A program made the translations under genes and the position numbers. The notes beneath the pieces are model-generated. The model saw nothing but the letters and a program-made list of their open reading frames with translations. It was not told the DNA's origin and did no database searches. From an uncultured Pseudomonadota bacterium (GTDB lineage: Bacteria; Oederibacteriota; Muellerivitia; Muellerivitales; Muellerivitaceae), in contig CAWIIP010000004.1 in the NCBI GenBank assembly GCA_963836235.1, positions 128,001 through 192,000 on the forward strand: DNA of 64,000 nucleotides, written 5' to 3'. Below are positions 20,454-38,677 of this stretch, piece by piece (the stretch's first letter is position 1; the number at the start of each line of letters is the position of its first letter).

Positions 20454-20930
20454 ATGAAAAATATTAATTCTCTATCTACTTTGCAAATCGGGGCGCTTGG
20501 TGTGTTACTAACCCAATTTGAGCTTCTTAAGGAGGGAATTGAATCCGCGCATCTTACTACTGATGCCGGTATTGACCTTGTGGCCTATTCGCCAAAAAAA
20601 GTTAAACCAGTTACCATTCAGGTAAAAGCTAATTTAAAACCCAAACCAGGTGGCGGCAAAGGCCCGAATTCAGTTGATTGGACTGTTCCAGGTGATTCGC
20701 CAGCCGAATTGTTCTCCTTTGTCGATGTTTCGGAAAGACGGGTTTGGCTAGTTACAAAAAATGAAATAGAAAGGGTGGCTCAACAACACCCGAAAAGTGG
20801 GAAGCACCATTTATATATGTACGTTGTGGACCCGGCCAAACTTAAAGGAAAAATTGGTATCGCTTCCCACGTTTCTAATTTTGATAAATACCGCCTTGAA
20901 AAAAGAATTAAAGAGCTTTTTTTTACTTAA
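20454..20930 (+). CDS. PD-(D/E)xK nuclease-family protein
   Basis: GALG...DAGIDLV...IQVK motif. Confidence 0.6.
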   Translation: MKNINSLSTLQIGALGVLLTQFELLKEGIESAHLTTDAGIDLVAYSPKKVKPVTIQVKANLKPKPGGGKGPNSVDWTVPGDSPAELFSFVDVSERRVWLVTKNEIERVAQQHPKSGKHHLYMYVVDPAKLKGKIGIASHVSNFDKYRLEKRIKELFFT

Positions 20931-20987
20931 AAAATTCTTCAATTCCCTGAAAATTCTCTCATTTCAAATTTACTAACTCATTAAAAC

Positions 20988-21029
20988 TTGACCTTTACGA
21001 AAGGCGGAAGGTATACAAGAGTATACCTT
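20988..21029 (+). promoter_or_regulatory. umuDC promoter with palindromic operator
   Basis: TTGACC (20988); AAGGTATAC-AAGA-GTATACCTT (21008-21029) overlapping the -10 region. Confidence 0.6.
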
Positions 21030-21054
21030 TACCCTATTTCGCAAGGATATTGTC

Positions 21055-21522
21055 ATGCGCGCTCACTTTCTAGGACCCATCGATAAACACAAAGATATTC
21101 TCCTCGACCTGATAGACCCGCCCATTCATGCCGGGGCACCCGGCCCCCCGGAAGAGTACCGGCGAAAGAGGGTGGATCTCAACAAGCTCCTCATGGACAA
21201 CATGGACGCCACTTTTCTTTGGTTTGCCGAAGGGGAATCCATGATCGATATCGGCATCCGAACCGACGACCTTTTGGTGATTGATCGTTCCTTGGACGCG
21301 GTGGATGGGGACATTGTGGTGGCTGGCTTCAACGGGGACAACACCGTGAAACGGCTTTCCGTGAACAAGGAAAAAGTCTTTTTGCTTCCCGAAAATTCCA
21401 ATTACCAACCCATCCCCATCAACCCCGAGGAAGGCGTCACCATTTGGGGCGTGGTCATCCTTGTCATTCACCCCTTGAGGAAGTCCTATGAACTCCGTCG
21501 TCGCCTTAATCGATTGCAATAA
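21055..21522 (+). CDS. umuD: UmuD-like S24 peptidase
   Basis: HAG cleavage site, GESM (Ser), TVKRL (Lys), PENSNY. Confidence 0.9.
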   Translation: MRAHFLGPIDKHKDILLDLIDPPIHAGAPGPPEEYRRKRVDLNKLLMDNMDATFLWFAEGESMIDIGIRTDDLLVIDRSLDAVDGDIVVAGFNGDNTVKRLSVNKEKVFLLPENSNYQPIPINPEEGVTIWGVVILVIHPLRKSYELRRRLNRLQ

Positions 21523-22759
21523 CTACTACGTCAGTTGCGAGAGGCTGTTTAACCTCAGGCTACGCGATAGGCCGGTGGTGGTCTTGTCCAACAACGACGG
21601 CATTATTATTTCCCGCTCGAACGAGGCCAAGGCCTTGGGGATCAAGATGGGCTCCCCCTTATTCGAGGTTAGGGAAGCGGTCGAGAGGCTGGGGATCATT
21701 GTCATCTCCTCAAATTACCCCTTCTACTTCGACATGTGCGACCGGGTGCGGGGCGTCTTGGCCCGGTTCACCCCGCTCCTGGATAAATACTCCATAGACG
21801 AGTGCTTTCTTGACCTCTCCGGCATACCTGCCCACGAGCTGGACGGTTATGGGCGCTTGATAAAAAAGACGGTTGAGAAATGGACGGGGATACCGGTCAC
21901 CGTGGGGATCGCCGAGACGAAATGCCTCGCCAAGGTCGCCAATAAGATCGCCAAGAAATCGAAGAGGGCCAAGGGAGTCCTGAACCTTTACCAATCCCCC
22001 CACATGGAGAGGGCGTTGGGGATGACCGACGTGGGGAGCCTTTGGGGAGTTGGGCCGGCCTACGAGAACGCCTTGAAGGGGGTGGGGATCAAGACGGCCC
22101 TGGATTTCGTCAGGGCCGAGGAACATTGGGTGAGGAAAAAAATGACGGTGGTGGGGTCCAGGATACAGATGGAACTCAAGGGCTTCCCTTGCATTCCGCT
22201 GGAATGGATTCCTCCCTCTAAGGAGCAGATGGGTATCGCGCAGGGTTTCGGGGTGCTGGTGGAGACCTTGGAGGAAATGCGGGAGGCCGCGGCCTTCAAG
22301 GGCTCGGAAATGGCGGCCAAGGCGAGAAGGGAAAAGAAGGCCATCAAGGAAATGACCGTCTGGATTCAGACCAACCCTTTCAGCGACGGCCCCAGCCACG
22401 AGGATTCGGAACCTATCGTTTTTCCGGTGGCCACCCAGGACACGGCCACTCTCATCCGGGCGGTGGAGGGGCCGGTGTCCCGGCTTTACAAACCCGGTTT
22501 CGGCTACAAGCGCATCGGGGTTTGGGCGAAAAAACTTGAGGGCGAGGATTGCGTCCAGGGCCACCTCTGGGTCAACCCGGACCGGGAGAAAAAACCCAAG
22601 CTCCTTAAGTGTATGGACCAGATCAACCGGGACTTTGGGCCGGGCACCCTGCGCATGGCCTCGGTGGTACGGAACCCAAGGTGGCCCACCCGGTTCGACC
22701 ACCAAAGCCCGGCCTACACGACGGACCCGATGGGGATTCCAAGGGCCAGGGTGAAATAA
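21488..22759 (+). CDS. umuC: Y-family DNA polymerase V subunit UmuC
   Basis: DCNNYYVSCE, VLSNNDG, YSIDE, C-terminal SPAYTT. Confidence 0.93.
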   Translation: MNSVVALIDCNNYYVSCERLFNLRLRDRPVVVLSNNDGIIISRSNEAKALGIKMGSPLFEVREAVERLGIIVISSNYPFYFDMCDRVRGVLARFTPLLDKYSIDECFLDLSGIPAHELDGYGRLIKKTVEKWTGIPVTVGIAETKCLAKVANKIAKKSKRAKGVLNLYQSPHMERALGMTDVGSLWGVGPAYENALKGVGIKTALDFVRAEEHWVRKKMTVVGSRIQMELKGFPCIPLEWIPPSKEQMGIAQGFGVLVETLEEMREAAAFKGSEMAAKARREKKAIKEMTVWIQTNPFSDGPSHEDSEPIVFPVATQDTATLIRAVEGPVSRLYKPGFGYKRIGVWAKKLEGEDCVQGHLWVNPDREKKPKLLKCMDQINRDFGPGTLRMASVVRNPRWPTRFDHQSPAYTTDPMGIPRARVK

Positions 22760-22876
22760 AAAACACTCGTGAAATCATTTCAGCGAGGAATAGTAATGGT
22801 TTTGTCGATGTCCCATGGAAGTGAAACTTCCGCGCCATGGAAGTCGAAAAATGAAGTTTCCCGTTTGTTTGGGTCT

Positions 22877-22971
22877 GTTTTCTCATGCTCCGATGGCGAA
22901 CCCCCCTATCTACGCATCAAGTGATGATGCGAGAACCGATAGGGGGGTTCGCCCTCTACGCATGAGAAAAC
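22877..22971. repeat. Long imperfect hairpin
   Basis: GGCGAACCCCCCTATC/GATAGGGGGGTTCGCC 16-bp stem nested in GTTTTCTCATGC/GCATGAGAAAAC. Confidence 0.8.
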
Positions 22972-23185
22972 CTTTATAAACCAGAGAAATTGACTTGATG
23001 CGGAAGTTAATAGGAGTGAGAAAGACAACAGAAAAGACAAAGACACACATAGGAAACTGGAGTGGGAGGACGGGAGTGAAGTGGTGGGGGTATGCGATGT
23101 GGTAGGTGCTAAGGCAGACCGTAGCCGGGGGAGTTAGTGGTAGGTGGATATTGGACGGGTTAAAGACAAGGCAAAGGATCGAGGC

Positions 23186-23229
23186 AATGGGGCCTCCTGG
23201 AAAAACACCAGGAGGCCCCATTTTTTTTT
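23186..23229 (+). terminator. Intrinsic terminator
   Basis: AATGGGGCCTCCTGG-7 nt loop-CCAGGAGGCCCCATT followed by a T-run. Confidence 0.85.
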
Positions 23230-23533
23230 ACTTGTTAGGGAACAGGTTAGGGGACTGCTTATAGGGTTATGGATTAAACGCAAGAAGGCCATTTAAGGGG
23301 GGAACGAAAAAGGGAAGAACGTCCTTTTTCGTGGGCCTTCCCCCTGGTCCAAGCTTCCCCACAAAAGCGGTGGGGAATCTCGGACCACCCCTTTCCCCTG
23401 GGGGCTTTGCCCCCAAGCCCCTTACCAAAAGGGAAAGACCCCTTTTGGAATTCCCAAGGAAACACCGTTGGTAGTGATAGGAGTTGTCGCGTTGAAGCTC
23501 CCTTTCATTTTCCAACGGGGACCCCACCAAGCC

Positions 23534-23626
23534 GAAATCCCCCTTACCGGCTTTCTATCCAGCCAAAGTATTTGAGCCCTTCGGGGAATGGAATTTTGGA
23601 GGCTAAAAGCCGGTAAGGGGGATTTC
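23534..23626. repeat. 21-bp perfect inverted repeat with 51-nt loop
   Basis: GAAATCCCCCTTACCGGCTTT / AAAGCCGGTAAGGGGGATTTC. Confidence 0.85.
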
Positions 23627-24235
23627 AGATTGGCCCATCCCCGTTGGCACTGTCCCGCCTGGGCCACGGAAAAATGCGGCCCTGGCAGGACAGCGATAAA
23701 TGAAAGGGGACTTTGAGTCCTCAGGGCCGTTTCAAAAAAGGAAAATTTCGGGGTAACCGCAAAAGATACCCCCTCGGTTTCCCTTTTTTGAAAGGACTTC
23801 GTCCCCGCCTTCGGAAAGCACGAAGGCTCCCGGCACTTCGGGTATCGGGGAACCATTAAAACCTTCGCCGTGGATCTGAGTCGTTATTCCCGCCTGAAGT
23901 ATTCCAGCAAACCCATAAAGCAGACATAGAAGTCCGGTACCCCAGGTATTAGGACGATGGACAGTTTCGGGAATTCGTCCCGAGGCCTTATAGCAGTTTT
24001 CCTTTCCACACGGCCACCCTTGCAAGGCAACTTTTGCGCCAGCCAAAGAGCGGCTGTCACAAAAGTTAAGGGATGGCCTTGCCTTTCTTCTCCTCCGATT
24101 AGTTCAGGACGTTTCCCCGCACGAACTCCCAAAACTCCGGCTTTGCCTTCTCCCTCCCCCCTTTTTTGTGAGGGGGGAGGGGGAAGGCGGTTTTTAAAAG
24201 GCGAAGAGCCTTCAAAAAAAAAGGAGGTGGTGGAC

Positions 24236-24355
24236 ATGGACGAGAACACGAAGCCGGAGGAGAAGACGGGAGGAATCCAAGGCGAGGGCTGGAAAGTCAC
24301 CGACGAGGAGATCGACCGGGTCATCAAGAAGCTGGAAGAGGGTTGGGGGTTTTAA
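24236..24355 (+). CDS. 39-aa acidic small protein
   Basis: Strong RBS AAGGAGGTG upstream of the ATG; MDENTKPEEK...EEGWGF; first of a tight operon. Confidence 0.55.
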   Translation: MDENTKPEEKTGGIQGEGWKVTDEEIDRVIKKLEEGWGF

Positions 24356-24364
24356 GGAGGGGGT

Positions 24365-24595
24365 ATGGCGCGCTCATCGTTTCAGGTCAGGAAGTTCAAA
24401 GTTTTGGGCCGGTATGAAATCCACTTTGGGCAGGTGGAAGGGTTCTTTTTCTACGAGATCGAGGACTTGGAAACCCTTGCCATGGTGGACGTGAAAGACG
24501 GCTTGACCGAGGGCGAGTTTTTGGAAGCGGTGGGAAGCGCCATGAACCCGATGGAATTCTTTGTTTTTCAAAAGCTTATTCACTCAATCACATAA
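24365..24595 (+). CDS. Small acidic hypothetical protein
   Basis: RBS AAGGAGG, operon context. Confidence 0.65.
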   Translation: MARSSFQVRKFKVLGRYEIHFGQVEGFFFYEIEDLETLAMVDVKDGLTEGEFLEAVGSAMNPMEFFVFQKLIHSIT

Positions 24596-24607
24596 GGAGG
24601 CAGACAG

Positions 24608-25516
24608 ATGAAAAACAACATCGCCGAGGAAATCACGAACCGGATTTTGCAGGACTTGGAAAAGGGCGTCATGCCTTGGGAGAAACCCTGGAAGCAGGGG
24701 CGGGGGCTCCCCCTGCCGGTTAACGCCAGCACGGGGAAGCACTACCGGGGGATTAACGTTTTGGTTCTATGGGACGAGGCCGTGAAGCGGGGATTTTCTT
24801 CCCCCTCATGGGTCACCTTCAACCAAGCCAAGGCCTTAAAGGGAAACGTCAAGAAGGGCGAAAAGGGTTGCGGGGTCGTTTTCTACAAGCGCCTCGCCAA
24901 GACCAAATCCTTGAACCTTTCGGATGAAGTCATGCTCGAACAGCAGACCTTTTGGATTTTGAGGACTTACACGGTTTTCAACCTCGACCAAGTAGAAGGG
25001 CTTGACCACCTGAAAGTAAAACCCGAAACCATCGAGCCCTTTGCCGCCATCGAGGAGGCCGAAGGGCTTTTAGTGGATTCGGGGGCGGAGATTCACCACG
25101 CCGCCCAAGATCGGGCCTTTTACGACCGCAAGGGGGACTTTATCTCCCTCCCCTTGAAAGAGAGCTTCAAGACCCCGGAAGGCTACTACGGCACTGCCTT
25201 GCACGAGTTGACCCACTGGACGGGCCACGAAACCCGCTTGAAACGGGAATTCGGGAAATGGTTTGGCGATCAAGCCTATGCCTTCGAGGAATTGGTGGCC
25301 GAAATGGGAGCCGCCTTCCTTTCCGTTTCTTGCGGCATTCCTTACGTCACCCGGCATTCCGACTACATCGGCGACTGGATTCAGGTTTTGAAAGACCACA
25401 AGAGGGCCATCTTCACGGCGGCGTCAAAGGCCCAGGCCGCCATGGATTTTGTCTTGAAGAGAACCCAAGAGGATTCCGAAGCCACTGAAACCATGCCGGA
25501 CCAATCAGCCGCCTGA
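24608..25516 (+). CDS. ardC: ArdC-family ssDNA-binding antirestriction protein
   Basis: PWEKPW, YRGIN, WVTFNQA, VFNLDQ, HELTHWTG, YAFEELVAE. Confidence 0.92.
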   Translation: MKNNIAEEITNRILQDLEKGVMPWEKPWKQGRGLPLPVNASTGKHYRGINVLVLWDEAVKRGFSSPSWVTFNQAKALKGNVKKGEKGCGVVFYKRLAKTKSLNLSDEVMLEQQTFWILRTYTVFNLDQVEGLDHLKVKPETIEPFAAIEEAEGLLVDSGAEIHHAAQDRAFYDRKGDFISLPLKESFKTPEGYYGTALHELTHWTGHETRLKREFGKWFGDQAYAFEELVAEMGAAFLSVSCGIPYVTRHSDYIGDWIQVLKDHKRAIFTAASKAQAAMDFVLKRTQEDSEATETMPDQSAA

Positions 25517-25528
25517 AAGGAGGGGATT

Positions 25529-26011
25529 ATGAAAAAGCAATTAGTCATGAGATTCAACTTGGATAGTTTCCCCGCGCCGACCGTTCCGCCCGCGTCTTGG
25601 GCGGAGGCGCGGGCCACCTATAAGCGAGGGCCGGTGGTGGGAAGCCCAGACGCAGTGGTTTCATACTTCAAGAAGTTCATCGGAGGGAAACCCAACGAGG
25701 CTTTCCTTTGTATGTTTTTGGACCACCGGAACCACGTCTTGGACTGCGTCTTGATGCAGGAGGGAACTGTGGACCACACCGCAGTCTACCCAAGGGAGAT
25801 TTTCAAGAAAGCTTTCGAACTGAAATCGGCCAGCGGTTTGATCCTCGTGCATAACCATCCGGCTGGAAGCCTGGAACCGTCCGAGGGGGACAAGGCTTTG
25901 ACCCGGCAGATGATGACCGCCGCCCGTTCCTTGGGGTTCACCATCCACGATCATTTGATCGTGGCCCACGAGGGGCATTTTTCTTTCCGCCTAGCCGGAC
26001 TTTTAACCTAA
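25529..26011 (+). CDS. radC: RadC-like JAB-domain protein
   Basis: E..., VYPRE, HNHPAGSLEPSEGD, DHLIV. Confidence 0.9.
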   Translation: MKKQLVMRFNLDSFPAPTVPPASWAEARATYKRGPVVGSPDAVVSYFKKFIGGKPNEAFLCMFLDHRNHVLDCVLMQEGTVDHTAVYPREIFKKAFELKSASGLILVHNHPAGSLEPSEGDKALTRQMMTAARSLGFTIHDHLIVAHEGHFSFRLAGLLT

Positions 26012-26020
26012 GGGGGAACT

Positions 26021-26242
26021 ATGGAAGCCAAGATCAAGAAAATCGGCCAGGAGGCTTTTTGGGTAAGGGGTGGAAATTACCGAACCGTCACAAAGGTCTT
26101 TTTCAAGGATGGGACGGCCATAACCTTTTGGGAAAAGCTTTCCCGGAAGGAGGCGAGTTTTAAGGCCTATTACCAGAAGGGGGTGGACGCAGGAATGACG
26201 GTTGAGGAGGCAACCGTTTTTGCCCAAGGGGGCGGGGTATGA
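26021..26242 (+). CDS. Small hypothetical protein
   Basis: RBS AGGGGG, operon context. Confidence 0.55.
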   Translation: MEAKIKKIGQEAFWVRGGNYRTVTKVFFKDGTAITFWEKLSRKEASFKAYYQKGVDAGMTVEEATVFAQGGGV

Positions 26243-26424
26243 GCCCCCTTGAATCGAATCCCCCGAAGGAAAAACCTGCCAAAATGGGCTTTGACAATTT
26301 CCACCTAGACCATTTTACCTGTAGATGTTGCGGGGCTCATGTGGTCATAAAGAACACCGAGCATTTCAAGATGCTTTGCCCGGAATGCGATCCGGACAGT
26401 TACCAGGAACCTAGTTGGGACTAA
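26239..26424 (+). CDS. Small zinc-finger protein
   Basis: CRCC...CPEC; overlapping start/stop. Confidence 0.5.
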   Translation: MSPLESNPPKEKPAKMGFDNFHLDHFTCRCCGAHVVIKNTEHFKMLCPECDPDSYQEPSWD

Positions 26425-26767
26425 CCCTTTGAACCAGGGAAACCAACCGCCACCTTTGCCGGTGTGGCCTCCGTGACCAAAGGTGGCGGCGCGGGTTTAA
26501 AAATAGATTTTTAAGCTCCGAGGGCTTCACCCCGAACATATAAAGAATTGATTCGTTATTTCTCTGAAACCAGATGGCTTTCTTCCCCCCATTCCTGCCG
26601 GGGGTAGATTAAAGTCAGTTAGGGAAGGGCTCACGCAGTGAATATTAACCACTTCAAGAGTGGCTAACCTGGGAATTTCACAATTATGAAAGGTCCTTGG
26701 CCAACTAGACCCTATTGCCTTTTCTGATTATCAAAACATTAACTGTATAATGACCCTTAATTAAATC

Positions 26768-27727
26768 ATGCCCCACGACCTCGAACGAAAACTTGTCCTG
26801 CTTACCTTATTGGCTTCCAGCCGATATCCTTTGACGCGCGCCGAGATATTCAAAAAACTCCCGTCCTATTATGGCGACCCTAAACGCAAAGCCGATTCAG
26901 CCAAAAAAATGTTCGAGCGGGATAAGGCGGAATTATCGGATGCAGGGTATGAACTTCTAGCAGAACCCATGGAAAGCGGGGATTTTAAGTATCGTCTTAA
27001 CAAGCCAACTGATTTTTTAGACCGAAATTTCCTTCTAACCCAAGAACAAGCTCAAACACTCAACAAAAGCCTAAACGACCCAGTTTTCAGAGGTCAACTT
27101 CCGGGAGTGGCCCTGCTGTCCCTGGCGAAACTGCTCACATTCCATGCTCCTTTCCTAGCAGGGGCTAAAACCCCAAAGGTCGGCCTCGACAAAGAAAGCC
27201 ACACTCTCCATTTCGCCCTTCGGGCGACGCAGGAAGAAAGAGCCATCGACGTGGAATATCCCTCGAAAGAAGGAAAGATGGAACGAAGGATATTCAGCCC
27301 CTATGGCGTATTTACCCAATCGGGAGCTGGTTATCTGACGGCCTGGTGCCATCGGGAAGAAATTCCCAAAGTCCTGGCTCTTTACAAAATCGGACGAATC
27401 GGTTTTTCTCCGGAATCCTACCACCCCAAACCAGATGGCCTTTCTATCGAACGGGATTATGCCTTCACCAATAAATGGGTCAAAGATGAAGCCAGAGGTC
27501 AAAGGGTCATCCTGCGGGTGGATAAAAGAAAAGCCAAACAAATACAGGAACAACACAAGTATTCACTACTCGACATTAAAAAAGACGGGTCTGTTCTGGC
27601 TGAATTTTGGGTGACCAACCCCAAGAGGTTCTTCCGCTTTGTCCTCCAGTTTGGACGTTACGCTCAAATCTTGGAGCCGCTGGAAACCTATAAAGCCTTT
27701 TCGGCTTTTCTGAAGGCCATTTCATGA
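26768..27727 (+). CDS. PafB-like HTH-WYL-WCX regulator
   Basis: KMFERDKAEL..GY (PafB signature), R..SPYG...GYLTAWC WYL domain, C-terminal QFGRYAQILEP. Confidence 0.8.
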   Translation: MPHDLERKLVLLTLLASSRYPLTRAEIFKKLPSYYGDPKRKADSAKKMFERDKAELSDAGYELLAEPMESGDFKYRLNKPTDFLDRNFLLTQEQAQTLNKSLNDPVFRGQLPGVALLSLAKLLTFHAPFLAGAKTPKVGLDKESHTLHFALRATQEERAIDVEYPSKEGKMERRIFSPYGVFTQSGAGYLTAWCHREEIPKVLALYKIGRIGFSPESYHPKPDGLSIERDYAFTNKWVKDEARGQRVILRVDKRKAKQIQEQHKYSLLDIKKDGSVLAEFWVTNPKRFFRFVLQFGRYAQILEPLETYKAFSAFLKAIS

Positions 27728-28701
27728 AAAAGAAAGCCTCTCGTCTTGAATGGTCCATCTCTAGGCTCATTGCACTCTTTGCCGGTTTAAAAAACCCCAT
27801 GACTTTGGAACAATTGGAAAAAAGATTCGGAGTCCGTTATCCAGATTTGATGTTCCTGGAAAAACACTTTTTGGGCCAGTCCGAAGAAATGAGTTCCACC
27901 GGTGACTTTGGTTTTCGCCTTGACATGCAAAAACTCAAGAACGGTCAAACCCTGGTCACCCCGATTGTGCCTACGGTTTTAGAAAGGGCGGTGGGGGTCT
28001 CCAATTCCGAGGCCCAATTGGCGTTGGCGGCTTTAACTTATATTGAGGTTCCCGAACCTCGCCGAAAGATATTAAAGGAAATCGAAACGGATTTAAGCGA
28101 AGCCTTGAAAAAGGTTAAAAACCCAACCAATATCCCATTTTTGTTTTCCCGCCAAAGCCCGCCTTTTCTGGACCCCGAGGGGTTGAAGGTTGCCCAAGGG
28201 GTTCAAGAAGAAACCGAGTTGGAATTCAACTATGAAGGGGCCAACAAATTCGAACGGAAAGTGCAACCTTTAAGCCTACGGAATGACGATGGGGTTTGGC
28301 GGCTTCTGGCTTGGGATTTGGATCGGCAAGGTCTTAGGATATTCAAACTATCCAATATCCAGAAGGTGGTTCCAGGAAAGGGGTTTAAATGGCCGACACA
28401 ACTCGACAAAGCCAAAATCCGCGCCACAGATTTAAGTGTTTACCAACCCAATGGGAAAGAACAAAAGGTGGTCCTTCAAATTCGTAATCCCACACTGGAA
28501 AGGTATCGAAGCTTTTTTCCGAATGTTCGGATCAATAAGAAGGACAATGGTTGGAAAAAAATTTCCATGGTCAGCCAAGACCCGCAGTGGGCCGCAAGAC
28601 TATTTTTACCTGGCCTGGGGGATGTCAAAATCCTTGGGCCGGCGGAGTTTAAGACGGCCTGGTTGGAAGAGATCAAAGCGGTAAAAGCCCTCTACCCCTA
28701 A
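27724..28701 (+). CDS. PafC-like HTH-WYL-WCX regulator
   Basis: RKVQPLSL...WRLLAWD..RQGLRIFKLSNI; W...LGDVKILGP; overlaps the pafB-like stop. Confidence 0.78.
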   Translation: MKKKASRLEWSISRLIALFAGLKNPMTLEQLEKRFGVRYPDLMFLEKHFLGQSEEMSSTGDFGFRLDMQKLKNGQTLVTPIVPTVLERAVGVSNSEAQLALAALTYIEVPEPRRKILKEIETDLSEALKKVKNPTNIPFLFSRQSPPFLDPEGLKVAQGVQEETELEFNYEGANKFERKVQPLSLRNDDGVWRLLAWDLDRQGLRIFKLSNIQKVVPGKGFKWPTQLDKAKIRATDLSVYQPNGKEQKVVLQIRNPTLERYRSFFPNVRINKKDNGWKKISMVSQDPQWAARLFLPGLGDVKILGPAEFKTAWLEEIKAVKALYP

Positions 28702-28790
28702 TTTAACTTTCTTCGGAAATCCTCAAATAACTTCAAAAACTAGCCATGTCCGTGGCGTCTTTCATGATCTCTCTTAAATCAGGGGGGGAC

Positions 28791-29732
28791 ATGAACATCA
28801 AAATTATCGGAATTGGCGGCGGGGGTTGTAACGCCCTTAACTATTTAATTCGTTCCAGGAAACTGAAAGCGGATTTTATCGCCATCAATTCCGACTATCG
28901 CTCCTTACGTCGTTCTAAAGCCAAAAAGAAACTTATCTTAAGCCCTAATTTATTGAACGGTTATGGAGCAGGAGGCAACCCAGATTTGGCTCAACAGGCC
29001 GCATGGCAAAGCGCACAAGCCATTCTAGGCTTGTTTAAAAAACCGGATTGGGTCTGCATCCTGGCGGGATTAGGTGGGGGTACGGGCACTGGAGCGGCCC
29101 CGGTGGTTGCCCAAATTGCCCGGGATGCGGGCATTCAAGTGGCTTCGGTTGTCACCCTTCCCTTTAGACATGAAGGGCCTATTCGCCACGCCCAAGCCCA
29201 AGAAGGTATGGAACTTTTGAAATCCCATTGTGATATCGTCTTGAAATTTTCAAATGACCAATTGAATCTCTTTGTTGACCGCGAGGGGTTGGACCTAAGA
29301 GAAGCCTTTGCCTTAATGGACGAGTGGTTTTCAAGGGCGGCCATGGCGGTGGGAGATCTATTACTCTATCGGCGTATTTTAGGACCTAAGCCTAGTGAGT
29401 GGAAAACCATTTTAGGAAAAGGAAGAAGCCTTTGGGTCGGGACGGGGTCTGCTTCTGGAAACTCGAGGTTTTTAAAAGTCTGTGAAGAGGCAATCCGATA
29501 TCCGATTGTGGAAGAAGTACAACTTTCCAAAGCGAAGAAATGGTACCCCTTGGTGGTGTGCCGAAGCATCACTCTTGGACAGTTCAACGCTATCAATGGT
29601 CATCTTTTAGCTAGAGTGCCTAAAGGGGTTAAGATCATCCCCGGAATTGCTTACGACAAAACTATGAAAAAGGACCAATTGCGTTTATCCCTTTGGGCAT
29701 CAGCGCCGCCAGAGAAGCACAAAAAACTTTGA
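28791..29732 (+). CDS. FtsZ/tubulin-family protein, divergent (no T7 loop consensus, no C-terminal tail)
   Basis: GIGGGGCNA, GAGGNP, GLGGGTGTG, PFRHEG; ATG at 28791 after a G-rich RBS. Confidence 0.85.
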   Translation: MNIKIIGIGGGGCNALNYLIRSRKLKADFIAINSDYRSLRRSKAKKKLILSPNLLNGYGAGGNPDLAQQAAWQSAQAILGLFKKPDWVCILAGLGGGTGTGAAPVVAQIARDAGIQVASVVTLPFRHEGPIRHAQAQEGMELLKSHCDIVLKFSNDQLNLFVDREGLDLREAFALMDEWFSRAAMAVGDLLLYRRILGPKPSEWKTILGKGRSLWVGTGSASGNSRFLKVCEEAIRYPIVEEVQLSKAKKWYPLVVCRSITLGQFNAINGHLLARVPKGVKIIPGIAYDKTMKKDQLRLSLWASAPPEKHKKL

Positions 29733-29780
29733 AAAGGGAAGGTTTCAAGCGGGAATGGAACCACTTCTAGGAGGTTGAAA

Positions 29781-30242
29781 ATGTGGGATGCAAAAGAATC
29801 GGATGAAATGATATTTGATAAATTATTGCGCACTGGACAAAAGGTGAGGACCTTGGAATGGGTCCTAGATGAAGTCGGAAAGAGACCATGGAGCACAGAA
29901 TTGAGGGCTTTGGCAGCTTTTGGATCGCTAACTTTAAGGTTTGATAAGGCGGCTAGGTCATTTGCAAAAACGGTTCTCTCCACCAATCGTTATAATAAAT
30001 GGGCCTTGACTGTCATGTTCGCATACACCCCAAATTCGACCATTGAGGAAATGCCGGAATTTTTTTACAGCAAAGGTTTTTATTTGGACTCTCTTTTGTA
30101 CTTACGCTTGAACCGACTAGGGTTAAAAGCCCCGGCCAGAAGACTTTGGGGTTTCATTGCCCGGTATGGACCAGAAGTGGAAAAGTGGTATTTGTTAAAA
30201 TCCGAGTTTGGGGTGGACAGGCGAGGTGGGCTAAATAGCTGA
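29781..30242 (+). CDS. Hypothetical helical protein
   Basis: RBS AGGAGG upstream of ATG 29781. Confidence 0.6.
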   Translation: MWDAKESDEMIFDKLLRTGQKVRTLEWVLDEVGKRPWSTELRALAAFGSLTLRFDKAARSFAKTVLSTNRYNKWALTVMFAYTPNSTIEEMPEFFYSKGFYLDSLLYLRLNRLGLKAPARRLWGFIARYGPEVEKWYLLKSEFGVDRRGGLNS

Positions 30243-32000: not shown

Positions 32001-35000
32001 GTGAAAAAAAACCCTCCTGGGATCATCTACTCTGCGACTGATTTGTCCAATTTTCTTGAATGCGAACACTTGACCGCAATGGATCGGATCAATCTAGACC
32101 ATCCCATGAAAAAATCAGTGGTGGATGAGATGGGTTCCCTAATGCAAGAAAAAGGTATCGCTCACGAAAAAAACTACGTTGACCGATTGAAAAAGAAACA
32201 CAAGTCTTTCGTTGATATCAATGAAATTGCCAAGAACAACGAAAGTAAAGCACCTGCCACCTTGGAAGCGATGAAAGATGGTGTAGAAATCATCTATCAA
32301 GCTGCCCTCAATGAAGGTAATTTGGGAGGGTTTTCCGACTTTCTTCGCCGCGTGGATAGGCCCTCTGGTCTCGGTAAATTCTCTTATGAAGTCGTAGACG
32401 CTAAGCTAGCCTACAGCGGTAAAAGCAAATTCTTGATCCAGTTGGCTTTTTACTCTGACTTGGTCACCGGTATTCAAAAACTTCAACCTCATAAGATGCA
32501 TCTGGTTTTAGGCAATGGCACTGAACAGAGCTACCGCGTTTCGGATTACTTCCATTACTACCAAAAGCTCAAGGCTAGATTTTTCGATAGCGTTAGTAAT
32601 CCTACCGCAAATGAAACTTATCCCAACCCCTGTGGGCATTGTGATTATTGCCAATGGAACGATCTTTGTAAGGAACGTAGGATTAAGGATGACCATTTAA
32701 GTCTGGTGGCCAATATTTCCCGTCTTCAAATCAAGCGTCTCAACGGGGTTGGTATCCAAACCCTAGAACAATTGGCCAATAGTAAGGATAAACCAACCAA
32801 ACTTAAGCTGAAAATCCAAGATTCCAGCTTCAAAAGGCTCAATCATCAGGCTTCCTTGCAATTTCGGGCAAGGGAAAGCGGTAAGAGAATATTCGAACTA
32901 CTGGATGAGCAAGAGGATCGCGAAGAAGGTCTTCGGGGTTTTACTCGTCTACCCAAACCCCATTCGGGCGATTTGTTTTTTGATATGGAAGGCAACCCTC
33001 TGGAATTGGGCGGACTGGAATATCTTTTTGGCCTACTTTATTTAAAGGATAAAAAACCTGTTTATAAACACTTTTGGGCGCATAGCAGGGAAGAAGAAAA
33101 AGGTTCTTTTGAGGGGTTCATGGATTTTGTGACTGACCACTTGCAAAAGAATCCAGGTGCCCACATCTACCATTATGCCGGTTATGAAAAAACCGCCTTG
33201 AAGAAGTTGATGTCCCTCCACGCAACCCGCGAATCCCAGGTGGATGATCTATTAAGGCAAGGGAAATTAATCGATCTTTTCCAAGTGGTTAGAGAAGCGG
33301 TAAGGGTTTCCGAACCCCGGTATTCCATTAAAAATATTGAGCATTTCTACATGAAAGACCGCGAAGGGGATGTAACGGATGCCGGGGCCAGTATTGTTTA
33401 TTACGAAAAGTGGAAAATGTTAAAGACCCCCAAATTACTTTCCGATATCAAGGACTATAACAAGGTGGATTTGGACTCAACCCAAAAACTCAGGGATTGG
33501 CTTCTGGAAATCGGTTCGAAGTTTGTGGGGGGGGAAAATGTTACCGATGCGGAACCGGTGGATGCAAAAGAAAGGGTGAAATCCCTAAAAATCATTGAAA
33601 GAGAGGAGAAGATCGAAGGTTATCGAAAGAAACTAATGAGCGGCCTTCCGGCAAATCTTATTGATTGGAATGACGAGGACAGACTGAAAGAATTGACTTT
33701 TCACCTGATGGATTTTCACCGCCGGGAAGCCAAACCCCAATATTGGGCCATCTATGACCGTCAACAGATGACCTATGAAGAGCGATTGGACGATGATCTT
33801 TGCATTGCCGGTTGTGAAATGATCAGCCAAGACCCAGATCCCAATAGCCCTTCTTCTATTCGATATACCTTTCGTTATCCCGAACAGGAGACAAAACTTA
33901 AGGATGGTTCAAAATGTCTAAACATTAATACCTTGGAAAACTTGGGCGAGATTGAGGTGGATTACGACAAAAAAGAAGTTAGCTTTCATCTGAGTAAAAA
34001 CAGGCAAAAACCCGAAAAGGTAATTGATATTGGCCAAGGATGGCCCGTGGATACGAGTAGGCTTGAAGGCACAGTTGAACGGTATGTGGATGATTATCTT
34101 CAATCGTTAGGAGGTGGCGAGAGACGTTATAAGGCGGTTTCCTCGTTTTTAAAAAGGGAAATTCCAAAGATCAAAAGCAGCGCCCATGGCAAGCCGCTTG
34201 TGGATGAAGAACTGGATTCTAAAGCAAGACTCTCCAAGATCGTTGAAGCGGTCCTCAATATGGAAAAGAGTTGCTTGTTTATCCAGGGCCCTCCGGGTGC
34301 AGGAAAAACCTTTACTGGTTCTCGAATTATTGTTGAGCTCATTGCCCAGGGTAAAAAGGTCGGCATTACATCGAATAGCCATAAAGCTATCATTAATTTA
34401 TTAAAAGCCATTGAGGGAGCGGCGAAGGAAAGTGGGCTTAAATTTCGTGGCGTTAAAAAATCCTCTGACGACGAGGATACCCTTCATCTTGGTGAACAGA
34501 TCGAAAATGTTACCGATAACAAAAAGGCCATTGGGAAAATCACAAGTGGATATTGCTCCCTGATTGCAGGAACGGCTTGGTTATTCGCGGACGCTAATAT
34601 TGATCAACAATTGGATTATCTTTTTATTGATGAAGCGGGACAGGTGTCCCTGGCCAATTTGTTGGCCGTGGGTACCAGCGCTAGTAATATCGTGCTTTTA
34701 GGCGATCAAATGCAGTTGGCCCAACCCATTCAAGGAGTTCACCCAGGCCAATCGGGCTTGTCCGCGTTAGATTATCTTTTAGAGGGTAATGCAACAGTGG
34801 CGCCTGAAAAGGGCATTTTCTTGGCAACAACCTTTCGCCTCCATCCGGATATTTGCGAGTTTATCTCAGAAGCGGTTTATGAGGGCCGACTTAAACCTGA
34901 AAAACGGACAACAAAACGAGTGATTGTGCTTGATGGTAAAACCGATCCAGCCCTTGCCCCTTCCGGCATAAGATATGTTCCTGTTGACCACGATGGTTGT

Positions 35001-35426
35001 TCGCAATTCAGCGATGAAGAAATTAAGCGTGTTTCCGAAATATTTAACAGCTTAATGAAGGTGTCTTATATCGACGAAAAAGGCGAAAAAAAGCCAATGG
35101 GCTATGAAAACATTCTGATCGTCTCACCCTATAACATGCAGGTGAACAAATTAACCGATGCTTTGCCAAAAAGCGCCAGGGTTGGAACGGTGGATAAATT
35201 TCAGGGGCAGGAAGCAGAGGCGGTGATCATTTCAATGGCCACCTCCAGCGCGGACTTTCTCCCGAGAAACATTGAGTTTTTATTCAGTAAAAACCGTCTC
35301 AATGTGGCCGTTTCGCGGGCAAAGTGTTTGGCTATATTGGTGGCCAATCCTGCTTTATTAACCATTCCCTGCAAAACTCCTGAGCAAATGGCCTTGGTGA
35401 ATACCCTTTGTTGGGTGGCCCAATAA
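32001..35426 (+). CDS. TM0106-type RecB-like nuclease / RNase H-like / SF1 (DNA2-Nam7) helicase fusion
   Basis: SDFLRR..EVVDAK nuclease, CxxCxWxxxC, FFDMEG, GPPGAGKT, DEAGQ, TVDKFQGQE, NVAVSRAK. Confidence 0.85.
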   Translation: MKKNPPGIIYSATDLSNFLECEHLTAMDRINLDHPMKKSVVDEMGSLMQEKGIAHEKNYVDRLKKKHKSFVDINEIAKNNESKAPATLEAMKDGVEIIYQAALNEGNLGGFSDFLRRVDRPSGLGKFSYEVVDAKLAYSGKSKFLIQLAFYSDLVTGIQKLQPHKMHLVLGNGTEQSYRVSDYFHYYQKLKARFFDSVSNPTANETYPNPCGHCDYCQWNDLCKERRIKDDHLSLVANISRLQIKRLNGVGIQTLEQLANSKDKPTKLKLKIQDSSFKRLNHQASLQFRARESGKRIFELLDEQEDREEGLRGFTRLPKPHSGDLFFDMEGNPLELGGLEYLFGLLYLKDKKPVYKHFWAHSREEEKGSFEGFMDFVTDHLQKNPGAHIYHYAGYEKTALKKLMSLHATRESQVDDLLRQGKLIDLFQVVREAVRVSEPRYSIKNIEHFYMKDREGDVTDAGASIVYYEKWKMLKTPKLLSDIKDYNKVDLDSTQKLRDWLLEIGSKFVGGENVTDAEPVDAKERVKSLKIIEREEKIEGYRKKLMSGLPANLIDWNDEDRLKELTFHLMDFHRREAKPQYWAIYDRQQMTYEERLDDDLCIAGCEMISQDPDPNSPSSIRYTFRYPEQETKLKDGSKCLNINTLENLGEIEVDYDKKEVSFHLSKNRQKPEKVIDIGQGWPVDTSRLEGTVERYVDDYLQSLGGGERRYKAVSSFLKREIPKIKSSAHGKPLVDEELDSKARLSKIVEAVLNMEKSCLFIQGPPGAGKTFTGSRIIVELIAQGKKVGITSNSHKAIINLLKAIEGAAKESGLKFRGVKKSSDDEDTLHLGEQIENVTDNKKAIGKITSGYCSLIAGTAWLFADANIDQQLDYLFIDEAGQVSLANLLAVGTSASNIVLLGDQMQLAQPIQGVHPGQSGLSALDYLLEGNATVAPEKGIFLATTFRLHPDICEFISEAVYEGRLKPEKRTTKRVIVLDGKTDPALAPSGIRYVPVDHDGCSQFSDEEIKRVSEIFNSLMKVSYIDEKGEKKPMGYENILIVSPYNMQVNKLTDALPKSARVGTVDKFQGQEAEAVIISMATSSADFLPRNIEFLFSKNRLNVAVSRAKCLAILVANPALLTIPCKTPEQMALVNTLCWVAQ

Positions 35427-35676
35427 GTAACTCTGAAGCATCCCCGCCGAAACCTATTCCCTCAATTCGTTAAAAATTCATTTAAAGAAGCCCTTTTCTG
35501 CCATGTCCGTGCCGGAGTTTAAGGTATGGATGTTGAAAGACATTGGAATTGGGTGTGGAAAAATGAGTTCTCAAATTGACGAGAAAAATATCCCGAGTAA
35601 GGACCGAAAGTTTCAACTTCGAAATGATTGGTCCGATTGTTTGCGGGTTCCTTTTGCAATTTCTTAAGAGGCTAAA

Positions 35677-36804
35677 ATGATCGACCATGTTGAGGAATAT
35701 TCAGTTGATTTGAACCAGAAACCATTTCGGGTTCTATGTATTGACGGTGGTGGTATGCGTGGTTTGTATTCTCTTTGCGTGCTGGAAGGGTTGGCGAAGC
35801 GGCTAACTCAACCTTTAAATGGCGATGAACTTGACCTGGGTAAGGCGTTTGATTTGGTTGTGGGTACGAGTACCGGAGCTATACAAGCTTGTGGTTTAGC
35901 CGCTGGAATTTCCACTACGAAGATGCAAGAACTTTATGTCAAACATGGACGCTCAATTTTCCCTGACCCCATGCCATCCAAAAAAGGCGGAATATGGTTT
36001 TGGCTTTGGGTTATTAGGCATATTTCAAAACCTTCTGCAAACGCCTCAAGACTTCGAGATGCTCTTTTTGAGGCATTTGGTAAGGAAACATTGGAACAGG
36101 TCTACGGTCGTCGAAAAATAGCTCTTTGCGTTCCAGCTATTCGTGGTTCCAACTTTAAATCACTCGTATTTAAAACACCCCACGGTAATTTTTTCCGAGA
36201 TAAAGAACATAGTTTGGTAAATGTTTGTTTGGCAAGTTCGGCAGCACCTTCTTTTTTCCCACTTCATAAAATTATGGAAAGTCCAAAAGGTGACAAAGAT
36301 GATGTTTTCATTGATGGGGGCCTATGGGCCAATACGCCAGTTTTGGTGGGTTTGGCAGAGGCGGTTCAATTGTCAGGAAATGGTCAAGCCATTGAAATTC
36401 TAAGCATAGGAAATTGCGCTCAACCTTCCGGTGATCCATCTGCCCTTGATGATTGTAATTGGGGTCTTAAAAAGTGGCGGGTGGGAATCGAAATGCTAAA
36501 TGCTTCAATATCAGCCCAAGCAATGGGCCATAAATATATTGCCGAAGTGATTTCAAACGCTTTTTGCAACCTTGGAAAGCGAGTTATGGTTTATCGACTT
36601 CCAGAGACAGCAAAGTCTCCTGATCAGTTCAGCGCTATCGGTCTTGATAAGGCCGATGAAAGAGCAATTCGAACTCTCCGGGCTATGGCTGAATCTGATG
36701 TTGATGAAGCAAATAGTAAGATGGTTCGGTCGCAAGACCCCTTTGTGATTCCATTTAGGGAAATTCTTTCAACGGTTCCTCTAAAAAATGTTAAGGAGGC
36801 TTAA
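35677..36804 (+). CDS. CBASS patatin-like phospholipase effector (CapV-like)
   Basis: DGGGMRG, GTSTG, DGG motifs; directly upstream of the CD-NTase. Confidence 0.88.
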   Translation: MIDHVEEYSVDLNQKPFRVLCIDGGGMRGLYSLCVLEGLAKRLTQPLNGDELDLGKAFDLVVGTSTGAIQACGLAAGISTTKMQELYVKHGRSIFPDPMPSKKGGIWFWLWVIRHISKPSANASRLRDALFEAFGKETLEQVYGRRKIALCVPAIRGSNFKSLVFKTPHGNFFRDKEHSLVNVCLASSAAPSFFPLHKIMESPKGDKDDVFIDGGLWANTPVLVGLAEAVQLSGNGQAIEILSIGNCAQPSGDPSALDDCNWGLKKWRVGIEMLNASISAQAMGHKYIAEVISNAFCNLGKRVMVYRLPETAKSPDQFSAIGLDKADERAIRTLRAMAESDVDEANSKMVRSQDPFVIPFREILSTVPLKNVKEA

Positions 36805-37944
36805 ATGCCTAATTTATCGAACGGGTTTGAAGCATTTTTAAATAAATTGGAACTTCCCCTTGCGGTCGTTCAAAAAATTGAACAGGCCCAAGCAATCATA
36901 GAGGCGGAGTTAAAAAGCGGATTGGAATTATTCTCCGCCAGCAAGCAAGGGGGCGGGGTAAAGATCACCCCGAAATTTATTCCCCAGGGTTCCAAAGTAT
37001 ACCGAACCTTAAATTATCCCTGTCACACTCCACCTCAGCAGGTAGATTTTGATTATGGTGTCTATTTGCCGGTATCGTACCATGCGAATAATGGAGAACC
37101 CTCCATCGCAGCCCTGGAATATTTTGCTCAGGTAGACACGATTTTGGATCGTGTAGCTCGTTCTAGGGGGTGGGTGATTGATCGGTCCAAGAAAACCTGC
37201 ACTCGTCTTATTATTGACAACTTGATTCATATTGATATCCCCCTTTATTCGATACCTGATGTGGAATTTCAACGAATCACAAAGGCAATGGAAAGCGAAA
37301 GGTTAGTGAAGAATTCTCGCGGGGAAACCTTTCAATTTGATAACGAAATTGAATTTTGGGATAACTTCGCTATTGATAAGGTCCTTTTGTGCAGGCGAGA
37401 GGGACGTTGGATTCCGTCCGATCCAAGAAAAATTGCAAAAGCCTTTAGGGAAGCCATTTCAAAACATGGGGAACAACTCCGGAGGGTTTGGCGTTATCTC
37501 AAAGCTTGGCGGGATAATCTATGGCCCAATGGGAATGGGCCATCGTCTATTTACTTGATGTTTGGTGCCCTTAAAACCTACAAAGCCGCAATGTGGCGTG
37601 ATGACATCGGGCTACATTCTGCCCTTCAAGCCTTTTTAACAGCATCCAGTACTAAAGTATTGACCAATGAGGGAGAAGATCTTGCGAAGAACCAAAAACC
37701 GGAAGAACTAGTTGCTCTTGAACGGGCGGCCAACAGTTTTTCTTCCGAATTGGCTCAGGCAATTAATTTGTCCGAAGAAGATGGACGGGCGGAAAGGATT
37801 GTTGTTCAACACCTCGGGAACCGATTTCCGATTCCTGATAAACCAAAAAATCCTGGGAATATGCCTGAACAGGAAAAGATAGACCTTATTCAACGACACC
37901 ATGCCCAGCAACCGGTGGGACGGCCCCATTTCAAGAATGCCTAA
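36805..37944 (+). CDS. CBASS cGAS/DncV-like nucleotidyltransferase
   Basis: QGSKVYRTLN, DFDYGVY, HIDIPLY, SDP, RYLKAWRD. Confidence 0.88.
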   Translation: MPNLSNGFEAFLNKLELPLAVVQKIEQAQAIIEAELKSGLELFSASKQGGGVKITPKFIPQGSKVYRTLNYPCHTPPQQVDFDYGVYLPVSYHANNGEPSIAALEYFAQVDTILDRVARSRGWVIDRSKKTCTRLIIDNLIHIDIPLYSIPDVEFQRITKAMESERLVKNSRGETFQFDNEIEFWDNFAIDKVLLCRREGRWIPSDPRKIAKAFREAISKHGEQLRRVWRYLKAWRDNLWPNGNGPSSIYLMFGALKTYKAAMWRDDIGLHSALQAFLTASSTKVLTNEGEDLAKNQKPEELVALERAANSFSSELAQAINLSEEDGRAERIVVQHLGNRFPIPDKPKNPGNMPEQEKIDLIQRHHAQQPVGRPHFKNA

Positions 37945-38677
37945 GGGGATTCTGTGGTATGAAAAACATTCGGCTCTTTTGCGAACGGTGGAAAAGGCCC
38001 TAGCCCTAAGAGCTCCAGGAATTAAATTGGAGGCCCTTAATGGAAGCGTGGCCGGGAAGGGACCTTTTCCGGTCGTTTGCCTTGAAGAAGAAGTGGGAGA
38101 ACCTTTTCAAATAGGGATTATTTTTCCCGTAGATTATCCGAATAATTTTCCAAAGATCATAAATCTTGATTCGAGGATACCACTTGGGCCAAATGCTGAA
38201 TGGCATATCGAGTCAGAAAATGTTGCTTGCCTAGGTTTGGTCGAACAAATTTGGCTTGATGTTGGTGACCCAAGAAATATTGAATTATTTCTTTCCAAAA
38301 CGGTTAACGATTACTTTATTCAGCAATCTTATAAGATTATCAAGAAAGTTTACCTTAGCGAGTGGAAGCATGAAACCCCGGGAAGACTAGATTTTTATTA
38401 CGAAACGTTTCCGCAGGCAGGTAATGACCCATTTAAAATCTATGCTGTTCTTGGAATTGTAACAGCCAAAGAAATCAAGGGTCACCATTCTTGTCCATTT
38501 TGTTATGGTAAGAAAATCCGAGATTGCCACATTGACATGCTTAAAATTTTTAAAAGTAAAATCCGAAATGATTATTTACTCGCCGCTTATGCTGAAATTG
38601 GAAAACATCTTAAAAATAAAACGAAGGTTCAACAGATTCCATTAGTAACCAAAAATTTGGGTGGTGTCTCAGTTTGA
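37937..38677 (+). CDS. E2-like protein with C-terminal SEC-C-like Zn motif (CBASS ancillary)
   Basis: FPVDYPNNFP, WHI.....ACLG E2 motif, CPFC.GKKIRDCH. Confidence 0.7.
   Translation: MPKGILWYEKHSALLRTVEKALALRAPGIKLEALNGSVAGKGPFPVVCLEEEVGEPFQIGIIFPVDYPNNFPKIINLDSRIPLGPNAEWHIESENVACLGLVEQIWLDVGDPRNIELFLSKTVNDYFIQQSYKIIKKVYLSEWKHETPGRLDFYYETFPQAGNDPFKIYAVLGIVTAKEIKGHHSCPFCYGKKIRDCHIDMLKIFKSKIRNDYLLAAYAEIGKHLKNKTKVQQIPLVTKNLGGVSV

Follow-up and report, generated by a model that had tools for sequence, protein, structure and literature searches.

A truncated, tail-less FtsZ paralogue behind a PafBC-type promoter box on a conjugative element, a candidate poison of host FtsZ

What does a shortened copy of the division protein FtsZ do in the defence island of a conjugative element? 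The question is raised by FtsZl, a gene at positions 28791-29732 on the forward strand of a 64,000-nucleotide stretch of DNA (the window; positions 128,001 to 192,000 of contig CAWIIP010000004.1, C4 below, in assembly GCA_963836235.1) from an uncultured bacterium of the family Muellerivitaceae. FtsZl encodes a truncated FtsZ paralogue in which the GTP-binding loops are intact, the T7 loop is replaced by GPKPSEW, and the linker and C-terminal peptide are missing. An initial annotation of the window had suggested that such a protein could cap or poison host FtsZ filaments. Our best explanation keeps this idea in a tentative form: at somewhat less than even chances, FtsZl would be a poison subunit or capper of host FtsZ, activated by a PafBC-type regulator and comparable in its effect to SulA, DidA and AciT. 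The anatomy of the protein, its descent, its promoter context and published precedents all fit this explanation, and from the sequence we infer the remaining steps, namely that single-stranded DNA (ssDNA) induces the gene, that its product binds host FtsZ and that division is arrested.

The open reading frame (ORF) of FtsZl runs to 29732 from an ATG at either 28746 or 28791. The later start, which gives a protein of 313 amino acids (aa), is most likely the real one because a G-rich Shine-Dalgarno sequence lies just 5' of it, the N-termini of all five relatives read MN[IMV]KI, and the ATG at 28746 falls within a promoter box. Pfam PF00091 (Tubulin) matches the protein at 2.1e-37 in a library scan, and residues 3-303 align with solved FtsZ structures at an E value of 1e-49. 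The GTP-binding motifs listed as intact in the initial annotation (GGGGCNA, GAGGNP, GGGTGTG, and PFxxEG) were all seen, in the form GIGGGGCNA, GAGGNP, GGGTGTG, and PFRHEG, together with the T6 Asn. Compared with cell-division FtsZ (TIGR00065, the FtsZ equivalog), FtsZl has the same fold over about 305 residues with the T1-T6 loops conserved, but it scores below the cut-off of that model (208.6 bits against 295.2), lacks both NxDxxD and a tail, and lies outside the ftsA-ftsZ cluster. The match to FtsZ_C, at 25.7 bits, is likewise below its cut-off of 27. Host FtsZ adjoins ftsA on contig C2, while FtsZl is in the island on contig C4. The absence of the linker and C-terminal peptide, a tail that serves to tether and regulate FtsZ, was also confirmed, as FtsZl stops about 10 residues past the last core strand and host FtsZ, with 386 aa, continues for about 70 residues beyond that point, including its C-terminal peptide. 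Structure prediction, one of the checks proposed earlier, returned a complete two-domain FtsZ fold: the AlphaFold2 model has a mean predicted local distance difference test score (pLDDT) of 87.3 with a minimum of about 70 around T7, and Foldseek superposed it on most of the listed chains of solved FtsZ at template modelling (TM) scores of 0.78 to 0.82, with three Spiroplasma FtsZ chains at about 0.5. FtsZl is not a wreck, since its fold is complete and confidently predicted, and by these profile and fold matches it genuinely belongs to the tubulin/FtsZ superfamily.

The T7 stretch of FtsZl, ILGPKPSEWKTIL, is aligned opposite IINRDFADVRRIL of host FtsZ. A search of a 5.8-billion-protein collection, in which 7,587 of 8,000 scored candidates reached an E value of 0.001 or lower, yielded among its best 120 hits a family of six proteins including that of the window (310 to 328 aa, 46 to 100% identical to FtsZl); the remaining 114 hits are ordinary FtsZs of 359 to 461 aa with no more than 39% identity to FtsZl. 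These 114 and host FtsZ served as the canonical set (n = 115), which is biased to top database hits, and the NxDxxD motif is present in all 115 of them and in none of the six FtsZl family members. The corresponding region of the family reads G/T/N-x-K/D-x-x-E-W, with E-W-K invariant. The window protein has G-P-K-P-S-E (pattern GxKxxE), so that the T7 Asn and the first Asp are both gone, as they are in P0002 and P0003; P0004 and P0005 retain the Asp. In metagenome and genome collections, no locus among the best 80 of each scan exceeded 40% identity to FtsZl, and canonical FtsZ swamped the results. No family member was found among viral contigs, and plasmid and phage collections gave canonical-type FtsZ only, with 38% identity at most. 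The gene neighbourhood of the family was read at one of its six members, that of the window.

Divergence of the family from host FtsZ is lopsided. Identity to host FtsZ in the N-domain is 0.40 to 0.48, next to a minimum of 0.48 among the canonical FtsZs (n = 114 here and for the other segments), and it falls to 0.05 to 0.20 in H7 (canonical minimum, 0.30), 0 to 0.19 in T7 and H8 (0.38), and 0.22 to 0.32 in the C-subdomain (0.40), which places the last three segments beyond all 114 canonical FtsZs. Across the six members, which are 46 to 78% identical, 80 columns are invariant; this indicates selection and argues against simple decay. The invariants specific to the family include E-W-K and new Trp residues at positions 204, 215, and 302.

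The source of the gene can be traced within its own phylum. Matches to FtsZl (E value of 1e-5 or lower) were found in 94 of 99 species genomes of the phylum, and all but five of these have a single match, which is evidently the FtsZ of that genome. FtsZl shares 35 to 41% identity with the FtsZs of its own family and 27 to 35% with FtsZs from the other families of the phylum. A quick maximum likelihood tree was built from 58 rows (6 of the FtsZl family, 14 of the host's bacterial family, 18 from the rest of the phylum, and 20 outgroups) and rooted on the three archaea among the outgroups. The six FtsZl members are monophyletic with a Shimodaira-Hasegawa-like approximate likelihood ratio (SH-aLRT) support of 100; their stem measures 1.82 substitutions per site, compared with a median tip branch of 0.27. 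Their clade is nested in a group of 24 rows (support, 98) that consists exclusively of FtsZs of this phylum, 14 of them from the host's family; the search was quick, the branch is long, and four of the FtsZl family rows deviate in composition. The placement indicates that FtsZl is a descendant of the host lineage's own FtsZ.

Upstream of FtsZl, on the same strand, are two genes for regulators with a helix-turn-helix (HTH), a WYL domain and a WCX domain, the PafB-like WYL1 (26768-27727; 319 aa) and the PafC-like WYL2 (27724-28701; 325 aa), the start of the second overlapping the stop of the first by 4 nt. Pfam WYL and WCX match WYL1 at 4.4e-9 and 4.2e-8, respectively; WYL2 matches WYL at 2.8e-12, and its WCX match of 5.8e-4 is below the curated cut-off. 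These two are the sole WYL domains found genome-wide. The top solved relative of WYL1 is mycobacterial PafB (7p5x_AY; E value, 5e-7; residues 5-258), and that of WYL2 is PafBC (6sj9; E value, 2.9e-6). The N-terminal region of WYL1 aligns with the PafB HTH, and its recognition-helix motif MFERDK is identical to PafB residues 47-52, with R50 kept and R46 replaced by Lys; in PafB, R46 and R50 are reported to read a GTC triplet (PMC8635444). Judged by these matches, the pair resembles the PafB/PafC heterodimer; the similarity is weak, though top-ranked. Just 5' of WYL1 (26700-26767), the pair has a conserved promoter-like sequence of its own with an extended -10 (TGTATAAT), and this upstream sequence is nearly identical in the window and in the related locus L168 (positions 130-176).

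The PafBC consensus as published, tGTCgg(N10)tA(N3)T, joins a -26 element to a -10 hexamer without a -35 element (PMC8635444). A box of this type, TGTCCG followed by 10 nt and CATGAT, lies on the forward strand at 28747-28768, in the 90-nt gap after WYL2 and 22 nt before the FtsZl ATG, with a predicted transcription start near 28775. A second forward-strand box, TGTCCG followed by 10 nt and TAAGGT, lies at 35504-35525, in the 250-nt gap before the patatin gene (35677) of an operon for a cyclic oligonucleotide-based antiphage signalling system (CBASS). Related loci were available from four other genomes of the same family (L168 to L171, with L168 in genome G070 and L169 in G058). The box after WYL2 has a positional counterpart in L168, L170, and L171, and boxes are found just 5' of homologues of the gene that follows FtsZl in the window (ORF153) in all four loci, in L169 at a distance of 18 nt; boxes in these loci also precede other small genes. 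The relatives' loci contain eight non-redundant boxes in 29.9 kb, compared with 0.53 expected from the genome-wide rate, and all eight are on the gene strand, 17 to 166 nt before the next ORF of at least 60 aa. A weight matrix made from the relatives' sites only ranked the window boxes first (35504; 23.2 bits) and fifth (the FtsZl box) in the 3.97-Mb genome, a test that is partly circular in that one pattern, picked after seeing the window's site, gathered all the sites. Seven of the eight other top-scoring sites checked are within open frames of at least 350 aa. A stricter pattern had five genome matches, about the number expected by chance from 116 core occurrences; two of the five are intergenic, and both of these are in this island. 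Credible boxes were found only in the island, bar one in a second UmuD-UmuC-ArdC module on C4. That one is the eighth site checked; it lies on the minus strand at C4:216414, some 24 kb past the window, and scores 20.7 bits. A chromosomal damage regulon for the box was considered and rejected, the other high-scoring sites being inside long open frames.

ORF153 (29781-30242 on the forward strand; ORF start 29775 or 29781) begins 48 nt after FtsZl, and its ATG at 29781 is preceded by AGGAGG, a strong Shine-Dalgarno sequence. From the end of WYL2 through ORF153, the sole terminator-like site outside coding sequence in the gene orientation is a weak 5-bp hairpin overlapping the box; further weak sites were found inside FtsZl and, on the opposite strand, inside ORF153. 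With the PafB/PafC-like pair and the box 5' of FtsZl, FtsZl and ORF153 likely form an induced operon, and regulation of this unit by the pair through the -26/-10 box appears to be the firmest of our inferential steps. Its nature is most likely that of an operon of an integrative conjugative element induced by ssDNA or DNA damage. The same pair probably drives CBASS as well. The 35504 box is syntenic with the box after a 79%-identical helicase gene in L168, and CBASS is absent behind the corresponding L168 box, so that CBASS seems to have been inserted behind a pre-existing WYL-controlled promoter. The window pair is like mycobacterial PafBC and its RecA-NDp/-26 element promoters, as far as these are described in PMC8635444 and PMC6789036, in having adjacent HTH-WYL-WCX genes, the helix motif and a box without a -35 element. 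It differs from them in lying on a mobile element, with E values of only 1e-6 to 1e-7.

Under the explanation we favour, FtsZl would derive from the host lineage's FtsZ by copying and neofunctionalisation and would travel as cargo of the integrative conjugative element. The PafB/PafC-like heterodimer would sense ssDNA arising from damage, from transfer or replication of the element, or from phage infection and would activate the -26/-10 "sigma-adaptation" promoter of FtsZl-ORF153. FtsZl would then bind GTP, and its conserved nucleotide-binding (top) face would dock on the T7 face of host FtsZ. Because its bottom face is without the T7 Asn and first Asp, it would be unable to complete the next active site or to continue the filament normally, and because it has no tail, it would not be tetherable by FtsA or similar anchors. 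The predicted outcome is that Z-ring filaments are capped or poisoned and division is paused until the signal ends. WYL activators are reported to drive division inhibitors, DidA in the case of DriD (PMC4211646, PMC9186387) and AciT in the case of DdaA (PMC13010146). Interface fragments of FtsZ are reported to be dominant-negative (PMC9245647), and truncated FtsZ1 of Agrobacterium is reported to inhibit division when overexpressed (bioRxiv 10.1101/2025.09.29.679267).

Several observations weigh against this explanation. The loss of the T7 loop is less complete than the initial annotation had it: NxDxxD is indeed absent from the whole family, but the last acidic position is a Glu in all six members, and the distant member P0006 retains N-x-D-x-x-E, so that a strict absence of the loop is limited to the clade of the window protein, P0002 and P0003. 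The P0006 pattern resembles the catalytic T7 loop of alpha-tubulin, so the family perhaps began as an active GTPase and may originally have formed, or may even still form, a hydrolysing polymer. Likewise, the lower half of the protein is not merely degraded, and its new invariants may form a binding surface with another purpose. The -10 hexamer of the FtsZl box begins with C instead of T, and the matrix test has the circularity described above. Full-length FtsZl is present in only 1 of the 99 genomes of the phylum, that of the window, and the constant gene behind the box in the relatives is ORF153 rather than FtsZl, three of the four related loci being without an FtsZ-like gene. Finally, contigs from four public DNA runs, which are short near-identical fragments of low depth and too few to test selection, carry two FtsZl variants, Q137H and N224K, each in two runs and at family-variable positions, and both change the amino acid. 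The same contigs include one that spans the FtsZl-ORF153 junction (29707-29857), three amino acid changes and one silent change in ORF153, and two silent changes in WYL1.

The constancy of ORF153 bears on whether it is a partner of FtsZl, as the initial annotation had supposed. No family in Pfam, NCBIfam, PHROG, or PADLOC matches its product of 153 aa. AlphaFold2 predicts a small all-helical protein with nine helices (pLDDT, 86.6), whose fold matches are weak and all to tetratricopeptide repeat (TPR) domains (best Foldseek E value against the PDB, 0.047); its look-alikes in a protein atlas are TPR or unnamed proteins. An exhaustive profile search of 1.84 billion representatives found 750 proteins at an E value of 0.001 or lower, and of the 150 listed, 24 are small relatives with a single stretch and the others long multi-TPR proteins. 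Of the 30 other genomes of the host's family, 4 carry an ORF153 homologue; the 68 genomes from the rest of the phylum carry none. The order in L170 and L171 is WYL1, WYL2, box, and ORF153-like gene, without an FtsZ-like gene. In L168, the slot after WYL2 holds a gene for a 188-aa protein (L168:2331-2897) and a 109-aa ORF; the ORF153 homologue there sits behind a box of its own, with the helicase gene after it. The 188-aa protein has a hydrophobic N-terminal stretch, as judged by eye, and is a possible alternative inhibitor; WYL-controlled division inhibitors include small membrane proteins. In L169, two tandem genes for the FtsZ N-domain only (196 and 192 aa) are directly 5' of an ORF153 homologue, the GTP loops of the second copy being degenerate, and a box precedes a further ORF153 homologue close by. 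An FtsZ-derived gene thus stands beside an ORF153-like gene in two of five loci. The partnership is favoured by this independent adjacency in G058, but ORF153 does not appear to depend on FtsZl, because three relatives carry an ORF153 homologue without an FtsZ-like neighbour. A complex prediction for the two proteins (alignments of six rows for FtsZl and seven for ORF153) scored 0.00, against a mark of 0.32, and carries no weight for or against a pairing.

The evidence speaks neither for nor against the other role suggested initially for FtsZl, that of a nucleotide sensor. The variable slot invites a reading in which the effector under WYL control is in fact ORF153, with FtsZl inserted recently as an accessory or modulator, such as a regulator dependent on GTP or a nucleotide sensor for ORF153. 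The box directly driving the ORF153 homologue in L170 and L171, its own box in L168 and L169, and the exchange of FtsZl for a 188-aa protein in L168 favour this reading. We consider it unlikely, as ORF153 shows nothing recognisable as a catalytic or membrane feature, only a generic TPR-like fold, and the reading leaves unexplained why the inserted gene should come from FtsZ and have just these losses.

FtsZl, perhaps with ORF153, could instead be an independent cytoskeletal or scaffold GTPase whose own polymer or complex serves the element or the damage response and leaves the Z ring untouched. Family-specific invariants on the remodelled half, the catalytic-position Glu of all six members with N-x-D-x-x-E in P0006, and the pairing of FtsZ-like genes with an ORF153-like gene in G058 speak for such a role, but the window clade is without the T7 Asn and first Asp, and no partition-type partner such as a DNA-binding adaptor is nearby. 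FtsZl is also far nearer to true FtsZ than to TubZ or PhuZ: the PhuZ PHROG matches only residues 16-136, at 4.8e-6, and RepX is matched at 1.6e-4, against 1e-49 for FtsZ. On balance, a polymer of this kind is doubtful.

A third reading takes FtsZl as a guard or decoy that mimics host FtsZ and baits phage inhibitors of FtsZ, either soaking them up or, with ORF153 or the defence genes, triggering immunity. Its setting is a dense defence island (with GmrSD-like, nuclease-helicase, CBASS, DUF499/methylase/SNF2, and Hachiman genes), the same promoter box stands 5' of the CBASS operon, and the fast divergence of the family and the amino acid polymorphisms would suit an arms race. A defence protein that senses a phage inhibitor complexed with FtsZ is reported in PMC13423816. 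The bait would be a poor one, however, with much of the lower half diverged; in addition, FtsZl has no fused or coupled effector domain, no PADLOC model matches FtsZl or ORF153, and no relatives were found in the phage, plasmid, and viral collections, all of which makes this role improbable. Pseudogene-like decay into a functionless duplicate, which the initial annotation had named as a way for its proposal to fail, would agree with the very long stem branch, the lost canonical motifs and the rarity of the family but is very improbable in view of the open frame, the good ribosome-binding site, the confident full fold, the invariant columns that persist down to 46% identity, the new invariants that have arisen, and the fixed place of FtsZl behind a conserved promoter.

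The preferred explanation, a poison subunit or capper of host FtsZ, shares its logic with known systems. As far as the reports describe them, DriD-DidA of Caulobacter and DdaA-AciT of Acinetobacter also connect a WYL regulator that senses damage or ssDNA to a division blocker of the kind proposed for FtsZl, and SulA under LexA follows the same logic, a damage sensor switching on a division blocker. The regulator of the window differs from DriD, which uses a homodimer-type site, in being a PafBC-like heterodimer with a -26/-10 box. SulA, MciZ, DidA, AciT, Kil, and Gp0.4 are, to our knowledge, all small proteins unrelated to FtsZ. Engineered T7 mutants of FtsZ are dominant. Capping or poisoning at the longitudinal interface, as proposed for FtsZl, is described for MciZ and for engineered FtsZ interface fragments (PMC9245647). 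MciZ is a 40-residue peptide, whereas FtsZl is a natural paralogue with a full core. In plants, the FtsZ-derived domain of ARC3 is no longer a normal GTPase and acts as an inhibitor of FtsZ assembly; unlike FtsZl, ARC3 is eukaryotic, plastid-targeted, fused to other domains, and of unrelated origin.

The closest bacterial parallels are the tail-less duplicates of the FtsZ GTPase domain in Hyphomicrobiales (FtsZ1 and FtsZ3 of Agrobacterium), which are reportedly chromosomal or chromid-borne, whereas FtsZl stands behind a WYL-controlled promoter on a conjugative element. FtsZl is of independent origin, branching with its own phylum, and its identity to rhizobial plasmid and chromid copies of FtsZ does not exceed 34% (25 records listed). 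A text search of the Hyphomicrobiales paper found no mention of the T7 loop. Literature searches on FtsZ with WYL, on capping or T7, and on truncated paralogues on mobile elements found no T7-altered tail-less FtsZ paralogue described from a mobile element or under WYL control. FtsZ-like families treated by Makarova and Koonin are reportedly among the nearest published items, beside the Hyphomicrobiales paralogues. What is new here, as sequence comparison has it, is the PafBC-like identity of the WYL pair and the promoter box before FtsZl.

If the preferred explanation holds, FtsZl would be the first FtsZ-derived inhibitor of bacterial division. Engineered interface mutants have been used to work on filament polarity and treadmilling, and an FtsZ paralogue acting as a capper would be their natural counterpart, as well as a ready-made tool for stopping division in the host lineage. 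The locus also suggests that PafBC-type heterodimers and -26/-10 promoters can operate from a conjugative element, driving both a variable cargo slot and the adjacent CBASS operon. A broader version, in which the mobile element has made a regulated "poison FtsZ" out of the host's division protein under a PafBC-type ssDNA switch, with FtsZl-ORF153 and CBASS forming a portable regulon, is more speculative still, and we lean against it; if true, ssDNA sensing, division control, and phage defence would be joined in one portable unit. The general importance of FtsZl is limited, because only six sequences were found, unless related copies that consist of the N-domain alone act alike. Such genes, of 192 to 200 aa and ending before T7, were observed in three genomes of the same bacterial family, at L169:5630-6220 and 6233-6811 (G058), L184:7009-7608 (G070), and L185:6945-7547 on the minus strand (G051). 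The GTP loops are intact in three of these four copies, and solely the G058 pair adjoins ORF153-like genes.

The surroundings agree with the placement of the gene on a mobile element, as noted initially, the region lying between a type IV coupling protein gene (4072-5913) beside a tRNA-Thr gene (3762-3837) and a TrbL/VirB6 gene (60546-62465), with ArdC and RadC alongside. Genes for SRAP, UmuD-like, UmuC-like, ArdC, and RadC proteins occupy 19511-26011, followed by the WYL pair, FtsZl, and ORF153 (26768-30242) and, from 30297 onwards, by genes for a GmrSD-like protein, a nuclease-helicase, and CBASS. The expected neighbours, a WYL and WCX pair upstream and defence genes downstream, were thus recovered. 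The nuclease-helicase (32001-35426) is a 1141-aa protein with a PD-(D/E)XK/Cas4-like N-terminus, an RNase-H-like part and a superfamily 1 (SF1) helicase part, the last of which matches the C-terminal portion of Mokosh MkoA. Its counterpart in G070, which shares 79% identity with it, comes directly after the ORF153 homologue, and the GmrSD-like gene and CBASS, which are extra relative to L168, are most simply explained as insertions. CBASS comprises the patatin (35677-36804), cyclase (36805-37944), and E2 (37901-38677) genes, and downstream of it are CoiA-like, DUF499, DUF1156 methylase, SNF2, and HamA and helicase (Hachiman) genes.

A second module of UmuD-like and UmuC-like genes, a non-coding stretch, and ArdC lies at C4:214182-218845, about 22 to 27 kb past the window end, and resembles the window at 21055-25516. 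In the window, the stretch between the UmuC-like gene and ArdC (22760-24600; about 1.8 kb, 55% GC) holds no convincing gene. A search of 22700-26800 with Rfam gave only a sub-threshold plant microRNA model, on a hairpin at 23527-23632. A similar stretch is present 5' of ArdC in L171 and in the second module, and the segment at 22760-24600 could be a structured leading-region element.

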